This document shows, piece after piece, positions 12,388-49,055 of a DNA stretch of 64,000 nt. The notes beneath the pieces are model-generated. The model was not told where the DNA came from. It did no database searches and saw only the letters and a list, made by a program, of their open reading frames with translations. The position numbers and the translations under genes were made by a program. Source of the DNA: Mizugakiibacter sp. (GTDB lineage: Bacteria > Pseudomonadota > Gammaproteobacteria > Xanthomonadales > Rhodanobacteraceae). The stretch is taken from NCBI GenBank assembly GCA_003233305.1, contig QILI01000111.1, forward strand, positions 1,322 to 65,321, given 5' to 3'. The stretch's first letter is position 1. Every line of letters starts with the position of its first letter.

Positions 12388-13476
12388 ATGTCCTTGGCCT
12401 TCACCCCGTTGCATGCCTTACACCGCGAACTCGGTGCCCGCATGGTCGATTTTGGTGGCTGGGAGATGCCACTGAATTATGGTTCGCAGATCGAAGAACA
12501 CCATACGGTGCGCCGTGCAGCAGGCATGTTCGATGTTTCGCATATGGCGGTGGTCGACCTGCAGGGGACGGCCGTTCGCATGTTGTTGCGGTATCTACTT
12601 GCTAACAGCGTGGATAAACTCAGGGCTCCGGGCAAAGCACTCTATAGCTGCATGCTCAACCAGAAGGGTGGCGTCATCGATGACCTGATCACCTATTTTT
12701 TGGATGAGCAACACTTCCGCATGGTCGTTAATGCTGCAACCCGGGATCATGATCTGGCGTGGATCCGGGCGCATGCTGCTGATTTTGAGGTAGAGGTGAC
12801 CGAGCGCAAGGATCTGGCGATGATCGCGGTACAGGGGCCACAGGCCCGTGAACGGGTGATCGCCTTGCTGCCAGAGGCGGATCGGGCTTGTGTCGAGGCC
12901 GCGTCACGCTTTACGGCTGTAGCAAGCGACGGGTTGTTTATTGCCCGTACCGGTTATACCGGGGAGGATGGTTTCGAGATTGTGCTACCGGTTGCGCGTG
13001 CTGAGCCTTTCTGGCGACAACTACTGGATGTCGGAGTGCGCCCGGCCGGGCTCGGAGCACGTGATACGTTACGGCTTGAGGCAGGTATGAATCTCTACGG
13101 CCAGGATATGGATGAAGACAGCACGCCACTGGAAGCCGGACTGGCCTGGACGGTAGCGTTTGACGAAGGGCGTGATTTTATCGGTCGAGGCGCCTTGGAA
13201 CAGCAGCGTAGCAGTGGAGTTCCGAGACAGATGCTGGGTCTGGTACTGGATCAAAAGGGCGTCTTGCGCCATGGCCAGCAGATTGATGCGATGTGCGGTA
13301 AGGGGGAGATTCTTTCCGGCAGCTTTGCACCGACCCTGGGAAAATCGATTGCCTTCGCCCGTTTACCGGCTGGTGATCCAGGTGAGGTCAGGGTACAGAT
13401 TCGTGGCCGCTTTCTCACTGTGCGGGTCGTGAACTATCCTTTTGTCCGCGCTGGCAAGCCGGCGGCGGGAGTTTGA
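12388..13476 (+). CDS. gcvT: Glycine cleavage system aminomethyltransferase T
   Basis: '[48 protein letters not shown]'. Confidence 0.95.
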
Positions 13477-15455: not shown

Positions 15456-15471
15456 AGACGTCCAGACGTCT
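15456..15471 (+). promoter_or_regulatory. Two tandem MetJ metboxes (AGACGTCC AGACGTCT)
   Basis: 7/8 and 8/8 matches to the metbox consensus AGACGTCT, directly abutting, 132 bp upstream of the metJ-like start. A TATGAT -10-like hexamer lies at 15475-15480. Confidence 0.65.
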
Positions 15472-15602: not shown

Positions 15603-16457
15603 ATGGTGACTACGACGTACATCGACCCATACATCGAACACGGATCGAAAACCGAACTGGTGCGTAAGGTTACGGTTTCGATTCCGTTGCATGTACTGCA
15701 CTTGGTGGTCGATGAGCGTACCCGCCGCCAAATTGGTAATCTCAGACACGCCACAATTAGTGATCTACTGTGCGAGGCGTTTCTGCACGCTTTCACCGGG
15801 CAACCACTGCCAACTGATGAGGAGCTGAGACGAACCATGGTTACGATCAAAAAGTCTGCTGTAAAAAAGTCCGCCGTACGTAAATCGATGGCGAAGAAAT
15901 CCACTACTACCAAGAAGCCGGTTGCCAAGAAACCCATGGCAAAGAAACCGGCAGTGAAAAAATCGGTGAAAAAGCCGGTTAAGAAGGTGGTCAAAGCTAG
16001 GGTTTCAGTAGCAGGTAGAACTGCAGCTAAGAAGCCCACAGTTAAGAAAACATCGGCAAAGAAATTAGTAAAGAAAGTGGTAACCAAGCAAGCTGTCAAG
16101 AAGGCGGCTGGCAAAGCGGTCAAGAAGCCGGTTGCGAAAAAGCCGGTGAAGAAGGTGGCTAGCAAGGTGACTAAGAAACCCGCCGCAAAGAAATTGGTAA
16201 AGAAAATAGTCAGTAAAGCGGTCAAGAAACCGGCCACGAAAAAATCGGTGAAGAAGGTGGTCAGCAAGGCGGTCAAGAAATCGGTTGCAAAAAAGCCGGT
16301 CAAGAAAGTGGTCAGTAAAGCGGCTAAGCAACCGGCTGTGAAAAAGACCGCTAAGAAAGTGGTGGCTAAGCCGGTTGCGAAAAAGAAAGCCACGGTTCGT
16401 AAGTCTAAGGGGAAAACGGCACCGGCACCGATCAAGCCGGTGGCAGTCGTTATCTGA
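15603..16457 (+). CDS. metJ: MetJ methionine repressor core fused to a ~205-aa Lys-rich histone H1/AlgP-like tail
   Basis: Residues 5-77, '[73 protein letters not shown]', are near-identical in pattern to E. coli MetJ. The rest is (A/S/P/V)xKK repeats with no acidic or aromatic residues. Confidence 0.85.
16110..16364 (+). repeat. Five consecutive 51-bp (17-aa) coding repeats within the Lys-rich tail
   Basis: [17 protein letters not shown] / [17 protein letters not shown] / [17 protein letters not shown] / [17 protein letters not shown] / [17 protein letters not shown]. Confidence 0.8.
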
Positions 16458-23644: not shown

Positions 23645-24073
23645 TCAGCTGACAATATAGCGTTGTAATTGCTCGATCTCGGTAGCTTGATCGTCGATAA
23701 CCGCCTTAACCAGATCACCGATTGATATCACACCGACAACCCGTCCGGATTGCTCTACCGGAAGGTGCCGGAAGCGCCCTTCGGTACAGAGTTTCATACA
23801 GGCCTCGACCGATTCTTCTGGGGTAACGGAGACCGGTGTCGAGGACATGATTTCCTTCACCGGGGTATCGTTGGAATGCTGGCCCAGAAGAATGACTTTC
23901 CGTGCATAGTCACGTTCGGAAATGATGCCGAGAAGCTTCTCATTACGCATCACCAGCAAGGCCCCGATACGATGCTCAGCCATGTGCTGGAGTGCTTCCA
24001 GAACGGTTTGGTCCGGGTCAATCGAATAGACGTCGGAACCCTTGCCTTCAAGTAGATGTTTAACCTGACACAT
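23645..24073 (-). CDS. CBS domain pair protein
   Basis: 'VYSIDPDQTVLEALQHMAEHRIGALLVM', 'GIISERDYARK', 'RHLPVEQSGRVVGVISIGDLVK'. Internal start MCQVKH. Confidence 0.75.
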   Translation of the reverse strand: MCQVKHLLEGKGSDVYSIDPDQTVLEALQHMAEHRIGALLVMRNEKLLGIISERDYARKVILLGQHSNDTPVKEIMSSTPVSVTPEESVEACMKLCTEGRFRHLPVEQSGRVVGVISIGDLVKAVIDDQATEIEQLQRYIVS

Positions 24074-24250
24074 TGTATGTTCCCTATGGTTGGCAGCCCT
24101 GTGGCACAAGTTTAGCGCGATGCTACGAGGCCTGCACGGTGGCTCATCGAGGCAGATAGACCCATCCGCCGAGTTGCCACATCGGTGTTTTGACCTAGGT
24201 GGCTCGGTGCTGCAAGTGAGGTGATCGGCGGTGACTGCCGGGAGCTGCAA

Positions 24251-28362: not shown

Positions 28363-28613
28363 TAAGTGTTTCTGCTACTTCGTAGCCATCGTCACGCCTC
28401 CAAAAAAGCCATCGTAGTCATTTCTATATTAGTCGATATGTGCGCTGCAACATCGGGTTTCAGGGGTAAGCCAATGTGAACAGGGGATTCCCAGACGGTT
28501 AGAAACTTGTTACAGTCGCCGTGACCAGGGTTTGGACGGCCTGTTCAGGCCGCACACGGATGCTGCATTTCATAACGACACATGTGTCACCTCACCGACG
28601 TTGGAGAGTCAGT

Positions 28614-31463
28614 ATGAACTTCGATACGAATAAACTTACCTCGGCTGTACGCCTAGCTTTGACGCTGGGTGCAGTGGCCGCGGTAGGCGTGGCCGGCAGC
28701 GCCATTGCGCAGACTGCCGGTAGCGCCACGACCCAGAACAAGCAGGCCAAGCAACTCAAGACCATCGTGGTTACCGGTTCGCGCATTCGCCGCGTGGACA
28801 TCGAGACGGCTAACCCCATTTTTACCATTTCACGTCAGAACATCACCCAGAGTGGCGCGGTCACCCTGGGCAATCTGATCCAGTCGATGCCGTCTATTTC
28901 CGGCCAGGCCACCAATCCCTACGTCAATAATGGCGGCGGAGATGGTGCGGCGTCGGTATCCCTACGCGGCCTTGGTTCACAGCGTACCTTGATGCTTATT
29001 GATGGCCACCGTGTCGTCAATAATGACATCAACCAGATTCCGGCAGCGATGGTTGAGCGGGTTGAAGTGCTGAAAGATGGCGCTTCGTCAGTGTACGGTT
29101 CCGATGCCATCGGCGGCGTGATCAACTTCATCATGCGCAAGAACTTCCAGGGTGCCGAGTTCAGCGCCAATTATGGAATCACCGATTACAGCGATGGCGC
29201 CACTCAAGGCGAGTCCTTCATGTTCGGCCAGACTACCGACAAGGGCAGTATTGTCGCCGGCATCTCCTACAACAAGTTTAATGCCATTTCTTCCAATAAC
29301 CGGAGTTTCTCCAACAAGGCGCTATATCTGGTCTCCGGTAGTGTCATGTCCTTTGGTTCCAGCCGCATCCCGAACGGACGTCTGGTCTTTGGTAACCAGG
29401 ATCTGGTCCGCATCACCGGCACCAACGGGACATCCCTGTCCGACTACAGACCTCGCGTGTCCTCGGATACTTTTAATTATCAGGCTCAGAACCTGATCCA
29501 GACGCCACAGGAACGCACCGATTTGTTCGTGATGGGCCATTATCAGTTGACCGATAACGTGCAGGCCTATCTGGATATCTTCCACAACAAGACCACCTCG
29601 CATTCGGCCGTGGCCCCGTCGTTGGCCGATACCGGTATCCCCAGTCCGCTGGTGATCTCAGCACTGAGTTACTACAATCCGGCAGGCGTCGCATTCTCCA
29701 ATGCCTCCGGCAATCGCTTCGAGGTTCGTTTTACCGGCCTGGGGCAGCGTATATCTCAGTACGGCACCACCACCGACCAGGTGTTCACCGGTTTGCGGGG
29801 TAATGTCGGCGATACCTCCTGGCAGTGGGATGCCGATATCAATTACGGTCACTTCTCTCAGGGTTACCAGGAACGAAACTACGTCAATCTTAAACAGGCC
29901 AACCAGGCATTTGGCCCATCGTTCATGAATAGTTCGGGTGTGGTGGTTTGCGGAACCCCAGGTAACGTGATCTCAGGTTGTACGCCCATCAACATTTTCA
30001 ATATCAATGCTCCGGCTCAGGCGGCACTGCTCAAGAAGTTCACTGCAAATCCGTTCTTCCAGTCCATTTATACCAGTCGTCAGGCCTCGTTTAACGCCAA
30101 TGGCGATCTGTTTGAGCTGCCTGCGGGCACCGTTAGCTTGGCCGTGGGATCCTTGTACCGTAAGGAATACACCAATTCATCGGTGAGCTCTGACATTCAG
30201 ATCAACCAGTTTACGGGTACCTGCCCGCTGGGAACCGGTTGTTCGTCTGGCTTGCAGGGTGGCTTCAGTGTCAAGGAAGCCTACGCCGAGGTATTGATTC
30301 CCATCCTCAAGGACATGCCTTTGGCCCATGCTCTGAATGTGGACATCGGCACCCGCTATTCGAAGTATTCCATTGCCGGTAGCACTACCAACTCCAAGAT
30401 TGCTGTGGAGTGGCGGCCGATTAAGGACTTGCTGCTGCGTGGTACCGTTTCGCAGGTTTTCCGTGCCCCTTCGATCAGTGATGTGTTTGCCGGCCCACAG
30501 AACAGTGCGCCGACCTTTGTCGATCCGTGCATTGGGTATATTCCAGGTGTCAGTCCGGCCTCTGAAAATGCGGCCTGCGGTGCTTCGACCGGTGCGACGG
30601 CAATTCCAAGTACCGGTATTGCAGCACCTTCCGTTTCGCAGACTAATTCGATCGTTTCCGGTTCGAAGTACGCAGGGTATTCCCTTAAGCCTGAGTTCGG
30701 TAAGAGCTTCGATTTCGGCTTTGTCTACGATCCCAGCTGGTTGCCGGGCTTTTCGACTAGCGTCGATCTGTGGCGCATTTATCTGAATGACACCATTGTG
30801 AGCGTTCAGGCGCAAACCGTAGCCGATATTTGCTTCAATAATCCGGCTAGTGCGTTTTGTGGCCTGATCCATCGTATTCCGATCGGTCGGATTTCCAATA
30901 TCTTTACGCCAACCGTTAATCTGGGACGGCTCGATACCTCGGGTGTCGACTTTGGATTCCGTTATCGCTTGCCGCACTTCAATACCTTCGGCTTTAATCC
31001 GGGCAATCTCTCGGTACGCTTCAATAGCACCTATATTGCCAAATATACGGACATTCCGGTACCGGGTGTATCCAGCGTTGCGCCGATCGTGAATGCCGGT
31101 AAGTACACTAGCCAGTTCGGTAACTTTGCCCGCTGGCGCGCTCTGACAACGGTTAACTGGACCCGTGGACCGTGGAGTGCGGTGTGGCGGATGCGCTACA
31201 TTGGTAAGATCGGTGTGCCGATCCAGGACTTCGGTACTGGTGCGTGGACGCAATTCAATTTCGGCTCCTATACCTACAATGATTTCTCATTGGGTTACGA
31301 GATTGCCCCGATCAATACCATGTTCCAGATCGGAATCAACAACGCGTTCAACAAGCAGCCACCGATCTTCACCCAGAACGTGGTGATCAACGCTAATACC
31401 GATGTCAATACTTACGATGTCATTGGGCGTTATTACTGGGCGCGGGCGACGGTCAAGTTCTAA
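28614..31463 (+). CDS. TonB-dependent outer-membrane receptor
   Basis: GGAGAG RBS and signal peptide ending 'AIA|Q'. Plug 'TIVVTGSRI', 'VEVLKDGASSVYGSDAIGGVINFI'. C-terminal 'YYWARATVKF'. Confidence 0.9.
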   Translation: MNFDTNKLTSAVRLALTLGAVAAVGVAGSAIAQTAGSATTQNKQAKQLKTIVVTGSRIRRVDIETANPIFTISRQNITQSGAVTLGNLIQSMPSISGQATNPYVNNGGGDGAASVSLRGLGSQRTLMLIDGHRVVNNDINQIPAAMVERVEVLKDGASSVYGSDAIGGVINFIMRKNFQGAEFSANYGITDYSDGATQGESFMFGQTTDKGSIVAGISYNKFNAISSNNRSFSNKALYLVSGSVMSFGSSRIPNGRLVFGNQDLVRITGTNGTSLSDYRPRVSSDTFNYQAQNLIQTPQERTDLFVMGHYQLTDNVQAYLDIFHNKTTSHSAVAPSLADTGIPSPLVISALSYYNPAGVAFSNASGNRFEVRFTGLGQRISQYGTTTDQVFTGLRGNVGDTSWQWDADINYGHFSQGYQERNYVNLKQANQAFGPSFMNSSGVVVCGTPGNVISGCTPINIFNINAPAQAALLKKFTANPFFQSIYTSRQASFNANGDLFELPAGTVSLAVGSLYRKEYTNSSVSSDIQINQFTGTCPLGTGCSSGLQGGFSVKEAYAEVLIPILKDMPLAHALNVDIGTRYSKYSIAGSTTNSKIAVEWRPIKDLLLRGTVSQVFRAPSISDVFAGPQNSAPTFVDPCIGYIPGVSPASENAACGASTGATAIPSTGIAAPSVSQTNSIVSGSKYAGYSLKPEFGKSFDFGFVYDPSWLPGFSTSVDLWRIYLNDTIVSVQAQTVADICFNNPASAFCGLIHRIPIGRISNIFTPTVNLGRLDTSGVDFGFRYRLPHFNTFGFNPGNLSVRFNSTYIAKYTDIPVPGVSSVAPIVNAGKYTSQFGNFARWRALTTVNWTRGPWSAVWRMRYIGKIGVPIQDFGTGAWTQFNFGSYTYNDFSLGYEIAPINTMFQIGINNAFNKQPPIFTQNVVINANTDVNTYDVIGRYYWARATVKF

Positions 31464-31691: not shown

Positions 31692-33503
31692 ATGACCATT
31701 TTTTCAGACGACGCACTGTTTCAAGCCCTCAACGCGCAGCGCTACAAGGAGGCTGAGCAAGCAGCTCAGGCCAGGCTGGCCAGTAACGATGACGATGTGC
31801 AGGCCTTGCTGGTTCTTGCTGTGGCTCTGAGTAGCCAAGAGCGATGGGTCGAGGCCTTGCCCTTGTATCGTCGTTTAACTGAACTGCAACCCCGGCAAGC
31901 CGGGCATTTCAGCAACCTGGCAACGATTTTGCGTCAAAGCGGCGATCTCAAAGGTGCTGAAGCCATGTATCGGCGGGCCCTGGCCTTGCATCCGGGTGAT
32001 CCGGTACTGCTTTCCAATATGGGTTTGTTGCGCTGGCAGCAGGGTGATATGGTCGAAACACGGGAGCTGATGCTGGCTGCATTCCAGGCCGATTCCGGTC
32101 TTCCAGAGCCGCGTATCTATGGGGCACTGGCCTGCCATGCCTGTGCCGATGTTGACACCGCCAGGCATCTACTGGTCGGCTGTGAAGGCTGGCCGCATCT
32201 GGGTGAGGATTTTGAGGTAGACCTTGCCACAGCGTTGATCCAGATTGAGAGGCTTGAACAAGCCGAAACCCGCCTCAAACAGTTGATGCACCACTATCCG
32301 CAATCCAACAGGGCCCGTCTGCAACTGGCTGCGTTGTACGAACGCTCCAATCGCATCGCCGAGGCCGAGGCGTTACTAGATATTGCCGGACCAGATATCC
32401 CATCCAGTAGCGAAGAACTTTCTCTACGGGCGGCCCTGCTGATGCGTTCTGACCATCCTCAGCCGGCCCGTTTACTTTATGAGCAGATTTTGCAACAGGG
32501 TAATGCTACGGCCCCGAATGCCCCCTATTATTTTCTGCTGGCGAAATGTTGTGATCGCCTGGGCGATAGCACTGCAACGATGCAGGCGTTGCGGAAGGGG
32601 CATGCAGCCCAACTCGAGTCGGCCTTACGTCTGGAACCGGAACTCGCCGATCCTGTCAGTGAACCGCTGGCAGTCGAGAGCCATCGGGTGCCCGAAGCAG
32701 GCCGGCTGTGGGGTCCTATCGAGGCGCCCGATGAGGCGGCCTCACCGATCTTTGTGGTGGGCTTTCCCCGTTCCGGAACGACCTTGCTCGAGCAGATGCT
32801 CGACGCTCACCCTGATCTGCAGTCCATGGACGAGCAGGCATTTATACAAGATGTCATAGAAACCATGGAGAAGGCGGGCTATGCCTATCCAGGTGATCTG
32901 GGACGTATCGATAGCGCCACGGCCGAGCAGCTGAGAAAGGTCTACTGGTCACACGTTGCGACGGTTGTTACGCTTGATGCTGGCCAGCGCTTGGTTGACA
33001 AGAATCCTCTAAATATACTCAGGTTGCCTATTCTGATGCGGATATTCCCGCAGGCTCGGGTTATCCTGATGCTGCGCCACCCGGCGGATGTGATACTCAG
33101 TTGCTACATGCAGAGTTTCCGCGCTCCGGCGTTTCAGATTCTTTGCTCGACGTTACAAAGATTGGCCCGAGGTTATGTCAGCACCATGCAACTTTGGTTT
33201 GACCATATCGAACTGCTGCATCCTCAGGTGCTGGAGATTCGTTACGAGGATCTGCTGGACGATCCGCTCAAACATACTCGCTTGCTCGGTGATTTTCTGG
33301 GCTTGCAGGATGTTTCACCGCTGCTTCGGTTTGACGAGCATGCGCGTGCCAAGGGTTACATCAGCACCCCGAGCTATACTCAGGTGGTGAAACCCTTGAA
33401 CAACAAGGCGGTGGATCGGTGGCAGCGTTATCACGAACAGCTGGATCCGCTGCTGCCGATTCTCAAACCGATTATGGATCATTGGGGGTATCACCCGGAA
33501 TGA
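31692..33503 (+). CDS. TPR-repeat + sulfotransferase-domain protein (paralogue 1)
   Basis: N-terminal TPRs. PAPS 5'-phosphosulfate loop 'FVVGFPRSGTTLLEQMLDAHP'. Also 'VDKNPLNILRLPILMRIFPQA', 'YEDLLDDP'. Confidence 0.8.
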   Translation: MTIFSDDALFQALNAQRYKEAEQAAQARLASNDDDVQALLVLAVALSSQERWVEALPLYRRLTELQPRQAGHFSNLATILRQSGDLKGAEAMYRRALALHPGDPVLLSNMGLLRWQQGDMVETRELMLAAFQADSGLPEPRIYGALACHACADVDTARHLLVGCEGWPHLGEDFEVDLATALIQIERLEQAETRLKQLMHHYPQSNRARLQLAALYERSNRIAEAEALLDIAGPDIPSSSEELSLRAALLMRSDHPQPARLLYEQILQQGNATAPNAPYYFLLAKCCDRLGDSTATMQALRKGHAAQLESALRLEPELADPVSEPLAVESHRVPEAGRLWGPIEAPDEAASPIFVVGFPRSGTTLLEQMLDAHPDLQSMDEQAFIQDVIETMEKAGYAYPGDLGRIDSATAEQLRKVYWSHVATVVTLDAGQRLVDKNPLNILRLPILMRIFPQARVILMLRHPADVILSCYMQSFRAPAFQILCSTLQRLARGYVSTMQLWFDHIELLHPQVLEIRYEDLLDDPLKHTRLLGDFLGLQDVSPLLRFDEHARAKGYISTPSYTQVVKPLNNKAVDRWQRYHEQLDPLLPILKPIMDHWGYHPE

Positions 33504-33516
33504 ATCTTTCCGGGTT

Positions 33517-35349
33517 ATGTCCGTCATGTCTGCGCAGCTGATTCACCGGATCCTTGAGGCTCTGCAACAACAGCGCTATGCCGAGGCGCTGCGGATGTCT
33601 GGTGAACTGGTTCAGGCCATGCCTGGCAACGAAGCGGCGCTGTCCATGCTGGCCGTCAGTGAGCAGCACATGGGCAATCTTACGGCGGCGGCGAAGATAC
33701 TGGACCGTTTGGTCGGTAAATACCCGGACACTTGGCAGCATTGGAATAATTTGGGTAATATCTACCGGGCCCAGGGAAATGTCGAGCGCGCACTTCCCGC
33801 TTATCGAAAAGCGCTGGCGCTACAGCCGAAGCATGCCCGACTCCACGCCAACATCGGGCTGTTGCATCTCAATCGTGGCGAGTATAGCCAGGCTCGTGAA
33901 CACCTGCTGGCGGCATGTGAGCTGGATGAAGTGGAACCGAGTATGCGGGTTTGGGCAGCATTGGCCTGTCATGCCGAAGGCGATAATGCGAGCACCCAGC
34001 GGTTGCTCGAGGATGGTTCGGGTTGGGTGGATATTTCCGCCGAGGCGCGGCTGGAGTTGGGCGGGTTGCTATTGCAACTGGGTCGTTTCGATGAGGGGCA
34101 GCAGCTTCTGCAGCAACCGTTTGCGGAGGCCTCCCTGGCGGTACGAGCGGCGGTACGCCGAGCGTTTGGCTTCGAACGTATCAATCAGCTCGAGGCTGCA
34201 GTGGCCATCGTCAATGATTTGCCATCCGCTGAGCAGGTGGTCGATCTGCAGGCCCGGCAGGAGTTACTCAGCATCCTCGCCACGTTGGCAATGCGGCGCC
34301 AGGATTATCGGTCTGCGCGTGGGTGTTTTGAAGCGGCCCTGGCGCTCGATACCCCGTGGCGCGAGCGTGCGGTGCTGTGGTTCGGACTCGCCCGAGCCTG
34401 TGATCGGCTCGATGATACCCAGGCCGCAATGGATGCTCTGGCCGAGGCACATCGGGCACGAGCCTTGCCGGGACAGCCGCTATGGCAGCCGGGTAGCGGG
34501 CATCAAGGTGACCTGAAAATGGCCGACCAGCGGATTTCTACAGCGGTAGCGGGTTCATGGCTGCGAGCGGCTGTGCCTGAAGCACAACCCCCTCCGGTTT
34601 TCGTGATGGGCTTCCCGCGTTCAGGTACCACCCTGCTCGAGCAAATGCTCTCCGCGCACCCACTTTTCAGCTCTATGGATGAGCGCCCCTTTATTCTGCA
34701 ACAGGTCCGGCACATGGCGTCGTCAGCCGGAGCCTATCCAGACAATCTGTCGACTTTGACAGCCGAACAGCTGGAGGTGTTGCGGCAGCAATACTGGGAC
34801 AAGGTACGGTCTGTCGTAAATTTGCCGCAAGGGATGCGTCTGGTCGACAAGAATCCGCTGAACATGCTGGCCTTACCGATGATCATGCGGCTTTTCCCGC
34901 AGGCGCCGATCATCTTCTGTCAGCGCCATCCGGGAGCCACCATCCTCAGTTGCTATCAACAGGACTTCCAGGATCCTGAGGTGCGAGCGCTATGTGCATC
35001 ACTCGAACGCCTGGCGTATGAATATGTCGCCTTTCATCAACACTGGCAGTATCACCTTGAGCTGCTGCAGCCGCGCTTGTTGGTCGTCAGCTACGAGGAT
35101 CTGGTCGCTGACCTGGATGCCACCCTCACCGATTTGGGGGCGTTTCTTGGGGTGTCCGATACGACGGCCATGAAAGATTTCCAAACCCATGCCCAGACCC
35201 GTGGTTACATCAGCACCCCCAGCTATGCGCAGGTCGTCGAGCCTATCAATCAGGATGCTGTAGAACGCTGGCGGCGGTATGCCAGCTGGATGCAGCCGCT
35301 GTTGCCGATTTTGCAGCCGGTTCTGGAGCAACTTGGCTATGAGGCCTGA
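33517..35349 (+). CDS. TPR-repeat + sulfotransferase-domain protein (paralogue 2)
   Basis: 'FVMGFPRSGTTLLEQMLSAHP', 'VDKNPLNMLALPMIMRLFPQA', 'RGYISTPSYAQVVEPIN', 'AVERWRRY'. Collinear with paralogue 1. Confidence 0.8.
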   Translation: MSVMSAQLIHRILEALQQQRYAEALRMSGELVQAMPGNEAALSMLAVSEQHMGNLTAAAKILDRLVGKYPDTWQHWNNLGNIYRAQGNVERALPAYRKALALQPKHARLHANIGLLHLNRGEYSQAREHLLAACELDEVEPSMRVWAALACHAEGDNASTQRLLEDGSGWVDISAEARLELGGLLLQLGRFDEGQQLLQQPFAEASLAVRAAVRRAFGFERINQLEAAVAIVNDLPSAEQVVDLQARQELLSILATLAMRRQDYRSARGCFEAALALDTPWRERAVLWFGLARACDRLDDTQAAMDALAEAHRARALPGQPLWQPGSGHQGDLKMADQRISTAVAGSWLRAAVPEAQPPPVFVMGFPRSGTTLLEQMLSAHPLFSSMDERPFILQQVRHMASSAGAYPDNLSTLTAEQLEVLRQQYWDKVRSVVNLPQGMRLVDKNPLNMLALPMIMRLFPQAPIIFCQRHPGATILSCYQQDFQDPEVRALCASLERLAYEYVAFHQHWQYHLELLQPRLLVVSYEDLVADLDATLTDLGAFLGVSDTTAMKDFQTHAQTRGYISTPSYAQVVEPINQDAVERWRRYASWMQPLLPILQPVLEQLGYEA

Positions 35350-36664
35350 ACCGATGCTGCAACAGGCTGCCGATCTACGTAACCAGGGCCGTTGGGGTGC
35401 AGCGGCCCAGCAAGTGATTGAGCTTGCCAGGGCGGATATTGGCTTGCCGCTGAAAATGGAGTGTGTCAACTTTCTCAAGAATATCGAGCGGGGCGAGTCG
35501 GCACTATCAATCTGTCGGCAGCTTCTCGACCAGCCGGTAGATCCTCAACGCCCCATGATATTGGCCAGGATGGGCAGCCTGGAGCAGTCGCTGGGGCGCT
35601 TTGCCGAGGCCCGAGGGCACTATCTGGAAGCCATTGAAGCCGGCTTTGATCTCGATGCCTGGCCTATCCATGCGGCACTCGCTCACCTGCAGCGTTATAC
35701 CGATAGCAGCCATCCCGACTTGGCTCTGTTCGAGCAACTGGAGGCCAGACCGCAGTTGGGGACCTCGGCCCGAACGGCGTTATGGTTTGCACGGGCCAAG
35801 GCCTTTGACGATCTGGGTGAAGATGCACAGGCGGCGCGCTGGTTGCGGCAAGCCAACCAGCAGGAAAGACAGTTGCGGCCCTGGGATCGCAGTGCCTGGC
35901 AGGCGGGTATCGAACGAGCCAGGAGTTGGTCGGCAGGAGCATTGAAAGTAGAAGCTCATCAAGGGCGCCCGCTGTTCGTGCTCGGCATGCCGCGCAGTGG
36001 TACCACCTTGTTGGCCGAGCGTCTGGGGCGTCATGCTGAGATCGCCCAACGCGGCGAACTGCCATTTCTCGACTATGTGGCCAGGCAATGGGGGTATGCC
36101 GGATTACCCGGCGATACCAGCAATCTGCAGCAGGCCACCCACTTCTATAGAGCTCATCTGTACCAGGATGATGCACCGCGCAAGGTGTACCTGGACAAGA
36201 ATCCCATGAATCTGCGTTACCTCGGCCTGATCGCCAGCTTGTTCCCGGATGCGGCGGTGATCGTCTGTCGACGTGAACCACGCGATACTGCGCTGTCACT
36301 GTATTTTCAGCAATTCGCCCATACCGATTATGGCTTTGCTCAGGATTTTTCTGATATTGCCGAGGTGGCCCGGGATGCGGCAAGCCTGTTTGAGCAGACC
36401 CGGGCTGGAGGCGGTTTGGATTTATACGAAGTCGAATACGAGGCCCTGGTAGCGGAGCCACAAACGACCCTGGATTCGTTGTTGGACTGGCTGGGCCTGG
36501 ACTCGTTCGCAGCCATGCGTACTGGAACTGAGATCACCTCTATTGGAACGGCCAGTCTATGGCAGGCTCGCCAGGATATTTACACGCGTTCGATAGGCCG
36601 TTGGCAACGCTATGCCCAGCTGTTGCCGGAGTTGTTGGAACTCCCTTCGGTACCACCCCACTGA
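35339..36664 (+). CDS. TPR-like + sulfotransferase-domain protein (paralogue 3, shorter and more divergent)
   Basis: 'FVLGMPRSGTTLLAERLGRH', 'LDKNPMNLRYLGLIASLFPDA', 'IGRWQRY'. The start overlaps the paralogue 2 stop (ATGAGGCCTGA). Confidence 0.75.
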   Translation: MRPEPMLQQAADLRNQGRWGAAAQQVIELARADIGLPLKMECVNFLKNIERGESALSICRQLLDQPVDPQRPMILARMGSLEQSLGRFAEARGHYLEAIEAGFDLDAWPIHAALAHLQRYTDSSHPDLALFEQLEARPQLGTSARTALWFARAKAFDDLGEDAQAARWLRQANQQERQLRPWDRSAWQAGIERARSWSAGALKVEAHQGRPLFVLGMPRSGTTLLAERLGRHAEIAQRGELPFLDYVARQWGYAGLPGDTSNLQQATHFYRAHLYQDDAPRKVYLDKNPMNLRYLGLIASLFPDAAVIVCRREPRDTALSLYFQQFAHTDYGFAQDFSDIAEVARDAASLFEQTRAGGGLDLYEVEYEALVAEPQTTLDSLLDWLGLDSFAAMRTGTEITSIGTASLWQARQDIYTRSIGRWQRYAQLLPELLELPSVPPH

Positions 36665-43637: not shown

Positions 43638-45245
43638 TTAACGGCCTGCTGCCGTATCGACGGCATGCTCGCGGATTGCCGAGAAACGTATATCCGGAGA
43701 GCGCTCCTGGGCAAGCTGTAAATTCACTCTGGAAGGGGCCAAATACACCAGTTCAGCGGCGGCATCCAGGGCCAGATAGGGGGCATACTTCTCGCGGAAC
43801 GCTTGCAGCGTGACCTCGTTGTCGCAGTGAATCCAGCGGGTGGTGGTCACGCCGACGTTCTCGAAGCTTGCCTCGACGCCGTATTCGTCCCGCAGACGAT
43901 AGGCGACCACGTCGAACTGCAGTACGCCCACGGCACCGAGGATCAGGTCGTTGGACATCAGCGGGCGAAAGAATTGCGTAGCCCCCTCCTCGGAAAGCTG
44001 CGCTAAGCCTTTCTGTAGGGCCTTCATTTTAAGTGGATCGCGTAGACGGGCCCGTCGAAACAGTTCTGGGGCAAAGTTGGGAATACCAGTGAAGCCAAGT
44101 GCTTCGCCGGCCGTGAAGGTGTCACCGATGGCGATGGTGCCATGGTTGTGCAAACCAATTACATCACCCGGGTAGGCTAGCTCGACATGGTCACGATCTG
44201 CGGCCATGAAGGTGAGTGCATTGGCGATGCGCAGCTCTTTGCCGGTACGAACCTGCAGCATCTTCATGCCGGAGGTATAGCAACCGGAACAGACCCTGAG
44301 AAAGGCTACGCGGTCACGATGCTGTGGGTCCATATTGGCCTGGATCTTGAAGACGAAACCACTGAAAGCGGCCTCTGCAGGGTTTACTTCGCGGCCGGTG
44401 GTGGGGCGAGGTTGCGGCGGCGGAGCATGTTTGACAAAGAAATCAAGCAATAACTGCACCCCAAAGTTATTGACCGCCGAACCGAAGAACACCGGGGTCT
44501 GCGCACCGGCCAGATAGGCTTCAGGCTCGAAAGGATGGGACGCACCCTGTACCAGTTCCAGTTCTTCACGTAACTCGGCTAACAGGTCGGGTTCCAGGTG
44601 TCGGGCCAGATCGGGGTGATCCAGTCCCTTGATAATGGTGGAGTTCTGGCGGGTGAAATTCTTGCCAGGCTCGAACAGATGTACCTCGTCCCGCAACAGG
44701 TGGTAAATACCCTTGAGTCGCTTACCCATACCGATTGGCCAAGTGATCGGTGCGCACTGGATGCCGAGTACGGATTCCACTTCATCGAGCAGTTCGATCG
44801 GATTGCGGCCTTCCCTGTCGAGTTTGTTGATAAAGCTCATGATGGGCGTATCGCGCAGGCGGCAGACCTCCATCAGCTTGATGGTGCGGGCCTCGACACC
44901 CTTGGCGCAGTCGATCACCATCAAGGCCGAATCGACCGCGGTCAGCACCCGATAAGTGTCTTCGGAAAAGTCGGCATGGCCCGGGGTGTCGAGCAAGTTG
45001 ATGGTGTGCCCGGCGTAAGGAAACTGCATGACCGAGCTGGTGACCGAAATGCCCCGCTCTTTTTCCATGGTCATCCAGTCGGAGGTGGCATGGCGCGTGG
45101 CTTTGCGGCTTTTGACCGAACCGGCCATCTGGATAGCCCCACCGAACAGCAGCAGCTTTTCGGTCAGCGTGGTCTTGCCGGCATCGGGATGGCTGATGAT
45201 GGCAAAGGTACGCCGGTGACGGATTTCGCTGGAAACATCGGGCAT
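43638..45245 (-). CDS. prfC: Peptide chain release factor 3
   Basis: '[29 protein letters not shown]', 'DTPGHADF', 'NKLDR'. Confidence 0.95.
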
Positions 45246-45477
45246 GAGGGTAGTTCAGATAGATGCCAATGGGAGCCGGGCATTATAAGCCATGCAGCAC
45301 GATGTCTGGCTTGGTGCTCACCAGCCAGCTCTGTTGAAGCGGCGGTCATTATCGATCAAGCGGTCTGCTGGGTACTCATGTATCTGTATCTGCGGCACGT
45401 ACTGGTCGGCACACTGTGTGCAAGGTGGGCTAAAACTACAATCCAGATACCTCATGTGTTGATTGATAAAAGCAAAT

Positions 45478-45501
45478 AGACATATAGACGTCTATACCGC
45501 T
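45478..45501 (+). promoter_or_regulatory. Three tandem metbox-like octamers upstream of metX
   Basis: AGACATAT AGACGTCT ATACCGCT = 6/8, 8/8 and 5/8 matches to AGACGTCT. They overlap a possible TTGATT-N18-TATAGA promoter. Confidence 0.55.
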
Positions 45502-45539
45502 ATTGACGGATGATGGGTGTTCACGTAAAGTTACTCCCG

Positions 45540-45662
45540 AAACTCATCGAGACCGGCGGAGGGACAGGCCCTTTGATGCCGGGGCAACCACGCAACCGCA
45601 AGGCTGCGTACGGTGCCAACTCCTGCGGAGAGCGCATGTTGCGTTCGCCGAGAGATGAGTCA
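45540..45662 (+). promoter_or_regulatory. SAM-I (S-box) riboswitch aptamer in the metX leader
   Basis: P1 CTCATC...GATGAG. GAGACCGGCGGAGGGACAGGCCCTTTGATGCCGGGGCAACC. P3 hairpin ACGCA..TGCGT. ACGGTGCCAACTCCTGC...GAGAGATGAG. Matches the conserved S-box core. Confidence 0.85.
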
Positions 45663-45743
45663 TCCGTTCTGGCGCTATCGCCTGGTAACGGGTTGGCTGC
45701 TCCGGTTCTCCACAGGCTCGATGCTTGCTACAGGAGATCCGCC

Positions 45744-46790
45744 ATGACCTTTGAAAATTCTTCCAGCTTTGCTTCCGAATCCATCGGTATCGATATACCG
45801 GCGTGTCGCAATCATTCGCAGCAGCGTGGTGTGCCGGGGGTGATGGCCAGTAAGAAACTACGGATTCGTCCCAAGTACGCTCCCTCCGATCCGGTTGAGG
45901 TAGAGCTTGCCTACCAACTGGTGGGTGCAGCGGGAGCACCTGTGGTGCTGGTGCAGGGAGGTATTTCGGCGCATCGATCGGTCTGTGCGCACCATGCCGA
46001 TGCGGCACCGGGCTGGTGGGAACCGCTGGTGGGTATCGGCAAGGGTATCGACCTACGGCACTTCCGGGTGCTGTCTATCGATTGGCTGGATGCGGAGGCT
46101 TGTAGTGCGCAGTCGGTGTCTAGTGAGGATCAGGCGGAGGCTCTGGCCGGTCTGCTGGATGCCCTGTTTATCGACAAGGTTCACACTTTTATCGGTGCAT
46201 CCTATGGGGCCATGGTGGGCTTGGCCCTGGCCCTGCGGCACCCGCAGCGTCTGGATCGCCTGGTATTGATCGCTGGCGCCCACCGACCGCATCCGCTGGC
46301 CAGTGCCCAGCGTGCCATCCAGCGCGATATCGTTCGTCTGGGCCTGGCAAGCGGGCAGGTCGATCAGGCCATGTCCCTGGCGCGGCAACTGGCCATGACC
46401 ACCTATCGTGGGGCGAGTGAAATGGCGCAGCGCTTTCAGGGTGAGGCCACACAGATTGATGGCCGTTGGCAGCGGCCGGTGGAAGCATGGCTGCAGCGTC
46501 ACGGTGAGCGTTTCGCGCGATCCTTTTCAGCACGACACTTTTTGGCACTTTCCGAATCGATCGATTTGCATTCGATCGAGCCGGAGACGATCCAGGTGCC
46601 GACCCGGTTGATCGGCTTCAGCTCCGATCGGCTAGTACCTCTGGCCGATTTGTTTGAATTGCAACAGCGGCTGGGGGTGACCGCTTCGCTTGAGGTCCTC
46701 GACTCGCCCTATGGCCACGACGCCTTCCTCAAAGAGTATGACCGACTCACCCCTATCCTGCGTGATGCACTGGACCACGGAATCCACTGA
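45744..46790 (+). CDS. metX: Homoserine O-acyltransferase (MetX type)
   Basis: 'VVLVQGGISAHRS', nucleophile elbow 'GASYGAMVGLALA', 'SDRLVP', 'SPYGHDAFL'. Start placed after the riboswitch (AGGAG RBS, ATG 45744). Confidence 0.85.
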   Translation: MTFENSSSFASESIGIDIPACRNHSQQRGVPGVMASKKLRIRPKYAPSDPVEVELAYQLVGAAGAPVVLVQGGISAHRSVCAHHADAAPGWWEPLVGIGKGIDLRHFRVLSIDWLDAEACSAQSVSSEDQAEALAGLLDALFIDKVHTFIGASYGAMVGLALALRHPQRLDRLVLIAGAHRPHPLASAQRAIQRDIVRLGLASGQVDQAMSLARQLAMTTYRGASEMAQRFQGEATQIDGRWQRPVEAWLQRHGERFARSFSARHFLALSESIDLHSIEPETIQVPTRLIGFSSDRLVPLADLFELQQRLGVTASLEVLDSPYGHDAFLKEYDRLTPILRDALDHGIH

Positions 46791-46791
46791 A

Positions 46792-47967
46792 ATGAGCAAA
46801 CCCTCTTCCACCACTTGTGCGGTACGCGCTGGTATCGAGACGGATACCCAGCACGGTGCCATTGTTCCTCCTCTGCACCTTTCCACCAATTACAGCTTCG
46901 AAGCCCTGGGGTGCAAACGGGCCTACGATTACTCGCGTAGTGGCAATCCGACCCGGGATTTACTGGCCGGAGCCCTGGCAGAACTTGAGGGTGGAGCTGG
47001 GGCGGTGGTGACCGCAAGCGGCATGGCGGCAGTCGCTGTGGCGCTGGAGCTGGTACCGCAGGGCGGCCAGGTGATTGCTTCGCATGATTGTTATGGAGGC
47101 ACCTGGCGATTGCTCGATGCCTGGGCTCGCAAGGGTCGCTTTTCTGTACGTTTTGCCAATCTGTCCGATCCCGCCATTTTGTCTGGATTGGCTGGTGAAA
47201 AGCCGTCGCTGATCTGGGTCGAGACTCCTTCGAACCCGTTGCTACGGATTACCGATATCCGCCATGTGGTGCGGATCGCCCGGCAGCTTGGTGCGCTATG
47301 TGTGGTCGACAACACGTTTCTTTCTCCGGCCTTGCAGCAACCACTGCAATTGGGCGCGGATGTGGTGGTGCATTCGACCACCAAATATATCAATGGTCAC
47401 AGCGATGTGGTGGGGGGTGCGGTGGTGGCCCGTGAGTCCGGGCTGGCTGAGCAACTGCACTGGTGGGCCAACTGCCTTGGACTTACCGGGGCCCCGTTCG
47501 ACAGCTTTCTCACTTTGCGAGGTTTACGCACCCTGGGGCCACGGCTGCGTGCCCATCAGGAGAATGCCCAGGCGGTGGCACAATTGTTGGCCAGCCACCC
47601 TTGGGTGCGCCGGGTGCACTACCCCGGGCTGCCCTCGCATCCTCAATATACGCTGGCTAGCAGCCAGCAGAATGGCCCCGGGGCCATGCTGAGTTTTGAG
47701 ATGGAAGGGGGTGAGGAGAGCATCAAGGCTTTCCTGCACGGCTTGCAGTGGTTTTCATTGGCCGAGTCGCTGGGTGGGGTGGAAAGCCTGGTGGCGCACC
47801 CGGCCACTATGACCCATGCGGCCATGGCTCCGGAAGCCCGTCGTAACGCCGGGATTGCCGATGGCCTGTTGCGACTGTCGGTGGGTATTGAGGATACCGA
47901 TGATCTGCTCCGCGATCTCGCTGCCGGTCTGGTCCGGGCCGAGGCCGCGGCCCGGGTTGCTGCATGA
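46792..47967 (+). CDS. metB: Cystathionine gamma-synthase (Cys/Met PLP family)
   Basis: Collinear with E. coli MetB as recalled: 'YDYSRSGNPTRDLLAGALAELEGGAGAV', 'HDCYGGTWRL', PLP-Lys 'HSTTKYINGHSDVV', 'LAESLGGVESL'. Confidence 0.9.
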   Translation: MSKPSSTTCAVRAGIETDTQHGAIVPPLHLSTNYSFEALGCKRAYDYSRSGNPTRDLLAGALAELEGGAGAVVTASGMAAVAVALELVPQGGQVIASHDCYGGTWRLLDAWARKGRFSVRFANLSDPAILSGLAGEKPSLIWVETPSNPLLRITDIRHVVRIARQLGALCVVDNTFLSPALQQPLQLGADVVVHSTTKYINGHSDVVGGAVVARESGLAEQLHWWANCLGLTGAPFDSFLTLRGLRTLGPRLRAHQENAQAVAQLLASHPWVRRVHYPGLPSHPQYTLASSQQNGPGAMLSFEMEGGEESIKAFLHGLQWFSLAESLGGVESLVAHPATMTHAAMAPEARRNAGIADGLLRLSVGIEDTDDLLRDLAAGLVRAEAAARVAA

Positions 47968-49055
47968 ACGCGGTGCTGGACCGAGCGGCACTTGCTCGAT
48001 GTCAGGCCACCACGCTGAGGGCCGAGTCGTGCGCGCTGGTACTCCTCGGTACGGGGGGAGTGGGTGGCGCCTTCCTTAAGTTACTCAGTACCCCGGCGGC
48101 CAATGCTCTGCGATTGGTCGGGGTGGCCGATTCGAAGCGACAACTGGTTGCAGCTACCGGCCTGAGCCGTGACGGCTTGAGTGAGCGACTGGCTGTCCAG
48201 GGTGTCCAGCGCGACAACTCTGCCTTGCTTGCGGCCCTGGATGCCGCTGCTGCGCCGATCAAGGTTGTTATTGATGCAACGGCCAATATTGATCTGGCCG
48301 CCCAGCATCCTGAGTGGCTGGCCCACGGTATCCATGTGGTCACCGCCAACAAGGCTCTGGCCGGCGGCAACCTGGCTGGCTGGCAGACCCTGCAGGCGGT
48401 CCGGACACCGGACTCTGAATATGGTGATACTGCTACGGTTGGAGCGGGTTTGCCGGTACTTTTCATGGTGCGGCGCTTACGCGCTTGCGGCGACGGTCTG
48501 CTCGGTCTGCAAGGGGTATTTTCAGGTTCGCTGTCCTGGCTGTTCAACCAGTACGACGGCAGTCGGCCGTTTTCGGAACGGCTGCACGAAGCCCGGCGCC
48601 TGGGCTACACCGAACCCGATCCCCGATTGGATCTGTCCGGGGAAGATGTTGCACGCAAGCTGTTGATCCTGGCCCGTACCGCCGGTTGGGCCCTGGACCG
48701 GGATTCGATACAGGTGGAAAACCTGGTACCTGGGCCGTTACGCACTTTGCAGCGTGCAGCGTTTCTGGCCCGGGCAGAACAACTCGACGCACCGTTGGCT
48801 CGTCGGCAGGCCCAGGCCCAGACCCATGGGGCCGTGCTGCGTTATCTGGCCTGTGCCGATGGGCCGTGCCGTGCTCGCGTCGGGTTGGTCGAGGTGCCAG
48901 CCAGTCATCCCGCCGCCCATTTGCAAGGTTCCGATAATCTGTTCATGCTGCGCACCCAGCGTTATTCCAGGCAGCCGTTGGTGATTCAAGGGCCCGGTGC
49001 CGGGCCCGAGGTCACCGCCCAGGCTTTGCTGGGTGATGTGCTGGCGCTGAGTTGA
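47964..49055 (+). CDS. hom: Homoserine dehydrogenase, ThrA/MetL-type module without an aspartokinase domain
   Basis: 'LLGTGGVGGAFLKLL', 'VVTANKA', 'TVGAGLPV', 'GVFSGSLSWLFNQ', 'GYTEPDPRLDLSGEDVARKLLILAR'. ATGA overlap with metB. Confidence 0.85.
   Translation: MNAVLDRAALARCQATTLRAESCALVLLGTGGVGGAFLKLLSTPAANALRLVGVADSKRQLVAATGLSRDGLSERLAVQGVQRDNSALLAALDAAAAPIKVVIDATANIDLAAQHPEWLAHGIHVVTANKALAGGNLAGWQTLQAVRTPDSEYGDTATVGAGLPVLFMVRRLRACGDGLLGLQGVFSGSLSWLFNQYDGSRPFSERLHEARRLGYTEPDPRLDLSGEDVARKLLILARTAGWALDRDSIQVENLVPGPLRTLQRAAFLARAEQLDAPLARRQAQAQTHGAVLRYLACADGPCRARVGLVEVPASHPAAHLQGSDNLFMLRTQRYSRQPLVIQGPGAGPEVTAQALLGDVLALS

Follow-up and report, generated by a model that had tools for sequence, protein, structure and literature searches.

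The closest experimentally characterised counterpart of the locus described here is SAM-I(Xcc), an S-adenosylmethionine (SAM) riboswitch of the SAM-I class on the met operon XC1251-1253 of Xanthomonas campestris (PMC6230763; PMC7270179). The orthologous operon, metX-metB-hom, lies in a 64,000-nucleotide stretch of DNA from Mizugakiibacter sp. (contig QILI01000111.1; this whole stretch is referred to below as the window), where a SAM-I aptamer is preceded by an array of octamers resembling the operator of the methionine repressor MetJ. SAM-I(Xcc) lacks a terminator and works chiefly at the level of translation, and its expression platform binds uncharged initiator tRNA as well; SAM binding, with the accompanying change in structure and expression, has been shown for it (PMC7270179). 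X. campestris is missing metJ, and its met promoter (-109 to +1) is blind to methionine, only the 5' untranslated region responding to it (PMC6230763).

Reconstructed MetJ regulons are confined to six gammaproteobacterial groups, within the Enterobacterales, Pasteurellales, Vibrionales, Aeromonadales and Alteromonadales including Shewanellaceae (PMC4239095; PMC5343134), and the authors of the former study remark on the absence of horizontal transfer of MetJ to other lineages. For the Xanthomonadales they proposed a different regulator, SamR, SAM-I not being analysed in that work (PMC4239095). Cooperative binding of SAM-carrying dimers to adjacent 8-bp operator units (metboxes) is established for Escherichia coli MetJ (PMC4239095; PMC2775130).

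The window resembles X. campestris in the operon itself (homoserine O-succinyltransferase, cystathionine gamma-synthase and homoserine dehydrogenase), in belonging to the same taxonomic order, Xanthomonadales, and in a leader of approximately 190-206 nt with a SAM-I aptamer, an anti-Shine-Dalgarno (anti-SD):Shine-Dalgarno (SD) hairpin and no intrinsic terminator. It differs from its counterpart, which has no metJ and a methionine-blind promoter, in a three-box putative operator abutting the -35 hexamer. With the MetJ regulon of the E. coli type it shares tandem 8-bp AGACGTCT repeats, 2-5 per operator, at the promoters of methionine genes and at metJ. It is unlike that regulon in that its host falls outside the described range and its operator stands in fixed phase directly upstream of the -35; furthermore, no SAM riboswitch is known on a regulated operon in the classical MetJ lineages, whereas the operon in the window carries SAM-I.

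Metbox array, predicted promoter and SAM-I aptamer upstream of metX

The elements preceding the operon and the genes of the operon are as follows (coordinates are those of the window).

45478..45485, no strand assigned: metbox 1, AGACATAT, 6/8 matches to AGACGTCT
45486..45493, no strand assigned: metbox 2, AGACGTCT, 8/8, perfect consensus
45494..45501, no strand assigned: metbox 3, ATACCGCT, 5/8, sharing the register of the other two and ending 1 nt short of the -35
45503..45531, + strand: sigma-70-type promoter from a promoter scan, -35 TTGACG (45503-08), 17-nt spacer, -10 TAAAGT (45526-31)
45541..45661, + strand: SAM-I (S-box) aptamer, RF00162, full model coverage
45543-48 and 45654-59, + strand: aptamer helix P1, CTCATC paired with GATGAG, read from the sequence
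45744..46790, + strand: metX, homoserine O-succinyltransferase, 348 amino acids (NF006449, 370.7 bits against a cutoff of 296)
46792..47967, + strand: metB-type cystathionine gamma-synthase / O-succinylhomoserine (thiol)-lyase (TIGR02080, 565 bits against a cutoff of 504)
47964..49055, + strand: hom, homoserine dehydrogenase (homoserine dehydrogenase models, all below curated cutoffs)
43638..45245, - strand: prfC, the upstream neighbour, divergent from metX (prfC-metX intergenic region 498 bp)

All positions in the window were scored by match counts against two and three tandem AGACGTCT boxes, and chance occurrence was estimated from 300 first-order Markov simulations of the window. The three boxes upstream of metX jointly give 19/24 matches, the best 24-mer in the window, and 14/16 matches, the second-best 16-mer; the simulations yielded, per window, 0.007 24-mers reaching 19 matches or more and 0.013 16-mers reaching 14 or more. 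The actual window contains two 16-mers with at least 14 matches, the metX operator and a site upstream of metJ, and just two perfect AGACGTCT octamers, at 45486 (metX) and 15464 (upstream of metJ). A search for (AGACGTCT)x3 with at most 3 mismatches returned nothing, because the metX site carries 5 mismatches.

The promoter TTGACG-17 nt-TAAAGT is the sole sigma-70-like match in 45200-45900. Transcription is predicted to start at approximately 45538, a few bases ahead of the aptamer, which would place the metbox array at about -60 to -37, and the distance from the last metbox to the aptamer is 39 nt. An earlier reading of the same DNA from its letters alone (the original prediction) had described three in-register metbox-like octamers at 45478-45501 overlapping a plausible promoter, with an aptamer beginning about 40 nt further on, and had suggested a metbox scan and a cmscan search with RF00162 as checks. 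The octamers and the spacing were recovered as described, and a promoter is predicted at the site; the overlap was not recovered, as a single base separates box 3 from the -35 hexamer and the boxes therefore abut the -35.

When the whole window was searched with cmscan, the only riboswitch match was RF00162 (SAM-I, S-box) at 45541-45661 on the + strand, with a score of 84.2 bits (gathering score 44.4), an E-value of 1.9e-18 and coverage of model positions 1-108 of 108, in agreement with the textbook aptamer that had been placed at 45540-45662; P1 (CTCATC/GATGAG) and the core motifs quoted for it are all present in the sequence. The aptamer occupies the 5' leader of metX-metB-hom and is followed by an expression platform (an anti-SD:SD helix). 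Orthologous aptamers in 12 other loci scored 68-85 bits. RNAalifold analysis of 16 aptamers recovered P1, P2 and P3 with compensatory changes (UA to CG in P1, GC to AU in P2 and in P3); covariation support for the four-helix junction P1-P4 was modest because the compared sequences are close. The distal parts of P3 and P4 vary in sequence and keep their hairpins.

The metB start codon lies 1 nt past the metX stop, and that of hom overlaps the metB stop (ATGA). Syntenic hom orthologues in related loci carry the Pfam domains Homoserine_dh and NAD_binding_3.

SAM-I was also seen beyond this family. It, and not SAM-II, stands upstream of the same metX subfamily in the Caulobacterales genera Litorimonas (locus L004) and Asticcacaulis (L067), as well as in an unclassified Pseudomonadota metagenome-assembled genome (L017), in Acidibacter (L070) and in Coralloluteibacterium (L003). 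SAM-I and this metX subfamily seem to travel jointly across classes, possibly by horizontal transfer.

A tailed MetJ homologue and its own metboxes

A homologue of metJ was identified elsewhere in the window, together with a second metbox array.

15603..16457, + strand: metJ homologue, 284 amino acids (NF003622, NCBIfam equivalog, 128.7 bits against a cutoff of 110)
15456..15471, no strand assigned: tandem metboxes AGACGTCC AGACGTCT, candidate autoregulatory operator, 15/16 matches, best 16-mer in the window

E. coli MetJ aligns to the window by tblastn with 72% identity at 15618-15833, and residues 5-80 of the window protein, its ribbon-helix-helix core, match the crystal structures 1CMA (E 1.1e-30) and 1MJ2 (E 1e-30). 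The window protein was aligned with E. coli MetJ and eight Rhodanobacteraceae homologues, contact residues being taken as named in PMC2775130. The core proved strongly conserved: the DNA contacts (base or backbone) Lys23, Thr25 and Arg40 and the SAM contacts Glu39, Arg42 and residues 59-67 (EAFLHAFTG) of the window protein are identical to those of E. coli MetJ, and the SAM-contact residues are strictly conserved across the Rhodanobacteraceae homologues. The two proteins thus have in common a core with 72% identity and the same base and SAM contacts (PDB 1CMA).

Beyond the core the canonical MetJ architecture of approximately 105 amino acids is not matched, homology ending near residue 80-88. 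Unlike E. coli MetJ, the Rhodanobacteraceae proteins have no helix C or corresponding C-terminus and instead carry a lysine-rich, histone-H1-like tail of 80-200 amino acids; that of the window protein begins at about residue 80, is approximately 200 amino acids long, is rich in lysine, alanine, proline and valine, and resembles PF07382 (HC2). The tail was common to all Rhodanobacteraceae MetJ proteins examined (Rhodanobacter, Dyella, Frateuria, Fulvimonas and Metallibacterium), whose total length is 160-245 amino acids, the window protein being the longest at 284. Most tailed homologues combine Pfam PF01340 with PF07382 (HC2), and the sources that name them say plain 'MetJ'. The genomic setting is also kept across genera, in the order gcvT, gcvH, gcvP, metJ and a TonB_C gene.

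Low-complexity, variable-length tails rich in lysine, alanine and proline (PAKKA-type) on a DNA-binding core are likewise found in Chlamydia Hc2 (PF07382) and in Ku of Mycobacterium smegmatis, where the basic tail modulates DNA binding (PMC3553676); in contrast to these, the MetJ tail is predicted to sit on a sequence-specific, ligand-responsive ribbon-helix-helix repressor. It may add non-specific affinity for DNA or extend occupancy over the core promoter, which is speculation. A search of representative proteins with the MetJ core reduced the family to 65 representatives, the long 'classic' matches being frameshift products. In one of the proteins seen (P0277, 211 amino acids) a MetJ core with 55% identity is followed by an unrelated helical C-terminal region of approximately 130 amino acids that is not basic, a second and different C-terminal replacement in the family.

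The pair AGACGTCC AGACGTCT lies between the gcvPA stop (15349) and the metJ start codon, 132-147 nt upstream of the latter, and in three further genera equivalent arrays (13-14/16 matches) stand upstream of metJ at a distance of 158-181 nt:

Rhodanobacter: GGACGTAT AGACGTCC
Dyella: GGACGTCT ATACGTCT
Metallibacterium: AGACGTCT AGAAATAT AGACGTCC

Judged from sequence, such an arrangement would be expected of a protein that binds canonical metboxes and, like E. coli MetJ, controls its own gene. No + strand promoter overlapping the boxes was revealed when the regions preceding metJ were scanned; a conserved TTGACA-N17-TAG(T/C)TT is found approximately 85-95 nt further downstream of them. The possibility that the palindromic box pair is a conserved terminator was discarded, as it is terminator-like in the window only and not in the other genera.

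In the 1.53 Mb of DNA retrieved, tandem sites reaching 13/16 matches or more numbered 181, of which 176 stand at SAM-I leaders, 3 upstream of metJ and 2 elsewhere. One of the latter two corresponds to the arrays that precede a CysB-family LysR regulator in locus L193, approximately 5 kb from the metX operon of that contig:

L193, 12563-12586: GGACGTCT AGACGTAA AAACGTTT
L193, approximately 12775-12790: GGATGTAT AGACGTCC

By analogy with the control of metR by E. coli MetJ, this LysR gene may be a further member of a Rhodanobacteraceae MetJ regulon.

Conservation of the arrangement and the leader RNA

The host is a soil-type gammaproteobacterium near Mizugakiibacter, in the family Rhodanobacteraceae of the order Lysobacterales (= Xanthomonadales). 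In reference genomes its closest MetX proteins belong to uncultured bacteria, one a Mizugakiibacter (91% identity) and the other a member of the Rhodanobacteraceae (86%); MetX peptides searched against reference genomes matched mostly Caulobacterales and just two close relatives, and the wider Rhodanobacteraceae were sampled through protein look-ups and a DNA-pattern scan of metagenomes. The two close relatives, L001 and L002, keep the block of boxes, promoter and aptamer, L001 diverging further upstream. In four more distant Rhodanobacteraceae lineages, with MetX approximately 60% identical to that of the window, SAM-I scores 74.6-80.4 bits and metX-metB-hom is kept. Metboxes and SAM-I are found together upstream of metX in L001, L002, L080, L082 and L083. 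Metbox 2 is invariant in L001, L002, L080 and L082, and positions 7-8 of metbox 1 vary (AGACATAC in L002, AGACATCC in L001 and GGACATAT in L080). In the distant lineages the boxes, the single base that follows them and the -35 read as follows.

L080: GGACATAT AGACGTCT ATACGGCC A TTGACA
L082: GGACGTAT AGACGTCT A TTGACA
L083: TGTCATAT GGACGTCT AAACGTCC ATAAAATC A TTGACA
L085: GGCCATAT AGCCGTCT ATATGGCC A TTGACA (degenerate)

No variation was seen among 7 leaders in ATTGAC or in the TA...T of the -10. The gene upstream of metX differs from locus to locus: L080 and L083 have MarR there, L082 a fatty-acid desaturase and L085 a co-directional UDG.

Metagenomes were scanned with a pattern in which ACGTCTA was followed after 0-20 nt by TTGAC and, after a further 30-45 nt, by CATCGAGACCGGC. 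At least 120 contigs matched, and the statistics that follow refer to the 80 loci listed, 75 of them unique. The distance from box to -35 was 1 nt in 37 loci, 9 nt in 35 and 17 nt in 3, so that 75 of 80 follow 1+8k, yet the first gap of the pattern was free over 21 lengths. Measured over all 80, TTGAC stands 33-37 nt from P1 in 76. The two boxes nearest to the one fixed by the pattern average 5.3-7.7 matches out of 8, and the in-register total is 25.9/40 matches compared with 5.4-10.8 for shifts of 1-7 nt. The 34 operators with the layout of the window average 5.97/8 in the promoter-proximal box. The metbox consensus, A G A C G T C/T T, is recovered by a weight matrix of the 169 boxes that the pattern left free (A 0.76, G 0.53, A 0.89, C 0.74, G 0.80, T 0.82, C 0.43/T 0.37, T 0.86). 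The unique in-register operators number 71; operators contain 2-5 boxes, mostly 3 or 4, that reach 5/8 matches or more. A MetX 43-93% identical to that of the window is encoded downstream in 61 of the 75 unique loci, most of the others ending shortly after the leader. Phasing to the -35 in strict steps of 8 bp suggests that selection acts on how the last dimer is placed relative to that hexamer.

The five exceptions to the register include L101, L110 and L138, which have SAM-I leaders with the same 5' core and -35 TTGAC, carry no in-register metboxes, and have no metX detectable downstream, though L138 offers 6.3 kb; in related environmental genomes SAM-I evidently governs genes other than metX too. 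In the two SAM-I outgroup loci to which scanning was limited, L003 (Coralloluteibacterium) and L070 (Acidibacter), no metboxes were present.

The leader of metX is approximately 206 nt long, untranslated and C-rich. The elements of its expression platform are listed below.

45622..45631, + strand: 5' strand of P4, CCUGCGGAGA, with a GGAGA mimic of the Shine-Dalgarno, predicted to pair with the anti-SD region in the ON fold
45707..45711, + strand: anti-SD UCUCC, pairing with GGAGA when the aptamer is formed
45717..45723, + strand: CUCGAUG, candidate anti-P1 element, complementary to the 5' P1 strand CAUCGAG (45545-51)
45733..45737, + strand: Shine-Dalgarno GGAGA, 6 nt before the start codon, from sequence and folds

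No intrinsic terminator was found in 45200-45900, and hence none between the aptamer and the metX start codon. Constrained folding with P1 enforced gave anti-SD:SD pairing in 7/7 diverged leaders. As there is no intrinsic terminator and the SD is sequestered in all seven leaders, translational control is favoured, and in this folding model the riboswitch most likely acts on translation rather than through premature termination, which the original prediction had proposed to look for; the termination/antitermination mechanism of classical S-box leaders was rejected for want of an intrinsic terminator. RNAalifold of the seven leaders yielded an alternative fold that breaks the aptamer, in which the helix CAUCGAG:CUCGAUG is kept in 7/7; enforcing this helix leaves most of the Shine-Dalgarno unpaired, at energies near those of the aptamer fold. 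In the five lineages folded both ways the two folds lie within about 1-6 kcal/mol of each other:

Window: ON -88.5, OFF -89.7 kcal/mol
L083: ON -111.6, OFF -111.3 kcal/mol
L082: ON -92.2, OFF -88.7 kcal/mol
L080: ON -95.9, OFF -99.7 kcal/mol
L085: ON -98.2, OFF -104.0 kcal/mol

Such near-equal folds would be the signature of a two-state translational switch tipped OFF by SAM.

Unrelated to met control are a GAF-GGDEF-EAL protein of the window (24251-27004, - strand) and the CBS-domain protein directly after it (23645-24250, - strand). The window also contains a run of three paralogous sulfotransferase (Sulfotransfer_3) genes at 31692-36664 on the + strand, downstream of a TonB-dependent receptor gene (28521-31463); TPR repeats are present in the first two of the three.

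Proposed two-layer control, its alternatives and its meaning

We propose that metX-metB-hom is under two serial SAM-responsive OFF switches, a MetJ operator and a SAM-I riboswitch, and put the probability of this at roughly 0.72. The original prediction had the operon controlled in trans by a SAM-corepressed protein and in cis by a SAM-binding RNA, and comparative genomics now lends support to both halves of that proposal. In the first layer, acting on transcription initiation, SAM-carrying MetJ dimers would at high SAM bind the three tandem metboxes cooperatively, and an array at approximately -60 to -37 would clash with the docking of sigma region 4 and of the alpha C-terminal domain, lowering initiation. 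In the second, acting mainly on translation initiation, the remaining transcripts would start a few nt before the SAM-I aptamer. With SAM bound, P1 and P4 would be locked, leaving UCUCC (45707-11) free to pair with GGAGA (45733-37) and blocking translation of metX; in the absence of SAM the 5' P1 strand would pair with CUCGAUG (45717-23) and the GGAGA of P4 would capture the anti-SD, so that the ribosome-binding site would be open.

Several observations weigh against this proposal. On the protein side, MetJ of the window lineage has Thr37 replaced by Val, Asn46 by Gly and Asn53 by Ile, and the window protein has a long basic tail in place of the helix C and C-terminus of E. coli MetJ; these changes mean that affinity, cooperativity or allostery could differ. 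The array stands upstream of the predicted -35 and not over the -35/-10 or the start, a position that activators occupy too. In the lineage of L085 and L086 the boxes (2723-2746) are degenerate, with A3 changed to C, yet remain in register with the -35, which could be due to decay of the operator or to an altered specificity of MetJ, and the conserved register could be owed in part to the shared ancestry of orthologous promoters and not to selection acting on each independently. On the RNA side, when P1 was merely forbidden the minimum-energy fold still sequestered the Shine-Dalgarno in all 7 leaders, so the ON state rests on the RNAalifold and constrained-fold model. In X. campestris the anti-SD hairpin likewise persisted in vitro, and the Shine-Dalgarno became free only with the help of a further factor, uncharged initiator tRNA (PMC7270179).

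The position of the array next to the -35 rather than over the core promoter, the missing helix C, the match of the approximately 200-amino-acid basic tail to a nucleoprotein family (PF07382, HC2) and the differences at Asn53, Thr37 and Asn46 in the window's lineage would all suit a MetJ-type protein that binds the array in another capacity than as a classical SAM-corepressed repressor, whether as an activator or architectural factor, in the manner of a class I/II activator or in place of an UP element, or, by virtue of its H1-like tail, as a largely SAM-independent nucleoid protein that uses the metboxes only to nucleate. We consider this improbable: all MetJ proteins studied so far are repressors (PMC4239095), the strict conservation of Glu39, Arg42 and residues 59-67 across Rhodanobacteraceae is hard to explain without ligand binding, activation would oppose a riboswitch by which SAM already switches the operon off, and the best box touches the -35 in about half of the operators among the loci listed, which favours steric exclusion. 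That the array is not a MetJ site at all, being instead the palindromic site of another regulator (for example one of the SamR/SahR type known in Xanthomonadales) or a conserved promoter-upstream sequence resembling metboxes by chance, is very improbable. It would draw on the palindromic nature of a single perfect box (TATAGAC|GTCTATA is a 14-bp palindrome), on the imperfection of boxes 1 and 3 (6/8 and 5/8) and on the prediction that SamR controls metB, hom and metX2 in Xanthomonadaceae (PMC4239095), but what recurs at these loci is 2-5 tandem units of 8 bp and not one palindrome (for example AGACGTCT GGACATCT GGACGTCT AAACGTCT in L132 and AGACGTCT AGACGTCT in L119), the weight matrix of the boxes not fixed by the pattern equals the metbox, and the same motif recurs upstream of metJ in four genera, with a chance expectation of 0.007 per window. 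SamR itself was rejected because its motif, a 24-bp ATC-N10-GAT palindrome (PMC4239095), does not fit the 8-bp tandem repeats. It is scarcely credible that the metboxes serve the divergent prfC rather than metX: they do lie in the intergenic region of the two genes, 233 nt from the prfC start, but the upstream neighbour changes among loci and the array keeps its 1+8k-nt register to the metX -35, for which reason prfC was rejected as the regulated gene.

As regards the RNA layer, it is rather unlikely, and would be compatible with the two-switch proposal, that the riboswitch works mainly through premature Rho-dependent termination or mRNA decay, following or replacing blocked translation, in which case both layers would set the transcript level. 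A long, untranslated, C-rich leader (approximately 206 nt) without an intrinsic terminator would lend itself to Rho, which the authors of the X. campestris study could not exclude (PMC7270179), and coupling to Rho is known for a translational riboswitch, the Mn sensor of E. coli mntP (PMC11647493); against this, translational fusions in X. campestris responded much more strongly than transcriptional ones (PMC7270179), and the conserved element of the expression platform is the anti-SD:SD helix.

Both modules of the proposed two-switch system are known; what is new is the pairing of MetJ with SAM-I, an undescribed host lineage of MetJ and an undescribed MetJ architecture. Open-access papers and bioRxiv yielded no earlier account of the pairing, of a Rhodanobacteraceae MetJ or of an H1-like tail on MetJ. 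The co-occurrence of MetJ and SAM-I had been called unusual at the outset; this holds for a MetJ outside the described groups and not for the riboswitch. As SAM-I has already been characterised on this operon in the same order, the unusual element is the presence of MetJ in a Xanthomonadales family. In the trp operon of E. coli, TrpR and attenuation follow the same layered logic. Protein control of initiation in series with a leader RNA is also seen at E. coli mntP (MntR and an Mn2+ riboswitch; PMC11647493), and a transcription factor is stacked with a riboswitch at hom-metXC of Oceanicaulis (SahR and SAM-II; PMC4239095). SahR, however, senses S-adenosylhomocysteine, and MntR and the Mn riboswitch switch expression on, whereas in the window both sensors would read SAM and both would act as OFF switches. 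By analogy with such systems, serial control by protein and RNA would give multiplicative feedback.

A more far-reaching possibility, which we regard as unlikely, is that Rhodanobacteraceae MetJ is a new type of repressor, acquired outside the described range and displacing or adding to SamR, in which a SAM-sensing core with an H1-like tail nucleates on -35-phased metboxes and the tail spreads over or clamps the core promoter or condenses DNA, in concert with a translational SAM-I riboswitch that may also read uncharged initiator tRNA. If this were true, tailed MetJ and SAM-I would together give multiplicative, ultrasensitive, multi-signal control of methionine synthesis.

On the two-switch proposal, the range of the MetJ regulon would extend to a family of Xanthomonadales, against the restriction to six groups in PMC4239095, and the conserved H1-like-tailed MetJ with an operator strictly phased to the -35 constitutes an undescribed architecture. 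The Rhodanobacteraceae arrangement would add a protein layer absent from the characterised Xanthomonas system, and protein and RNA sensors for SAM in series on one operon would make it a natural test case. As X. campestris has the operon and the riboswitch with a methionine-blind promoter and no metJ, it provides a close natural control, and the comparison lets one ask what the protein layer adds, be it a saving in the cost of transcription, a steeper response, or another SAM threshold or time scale.

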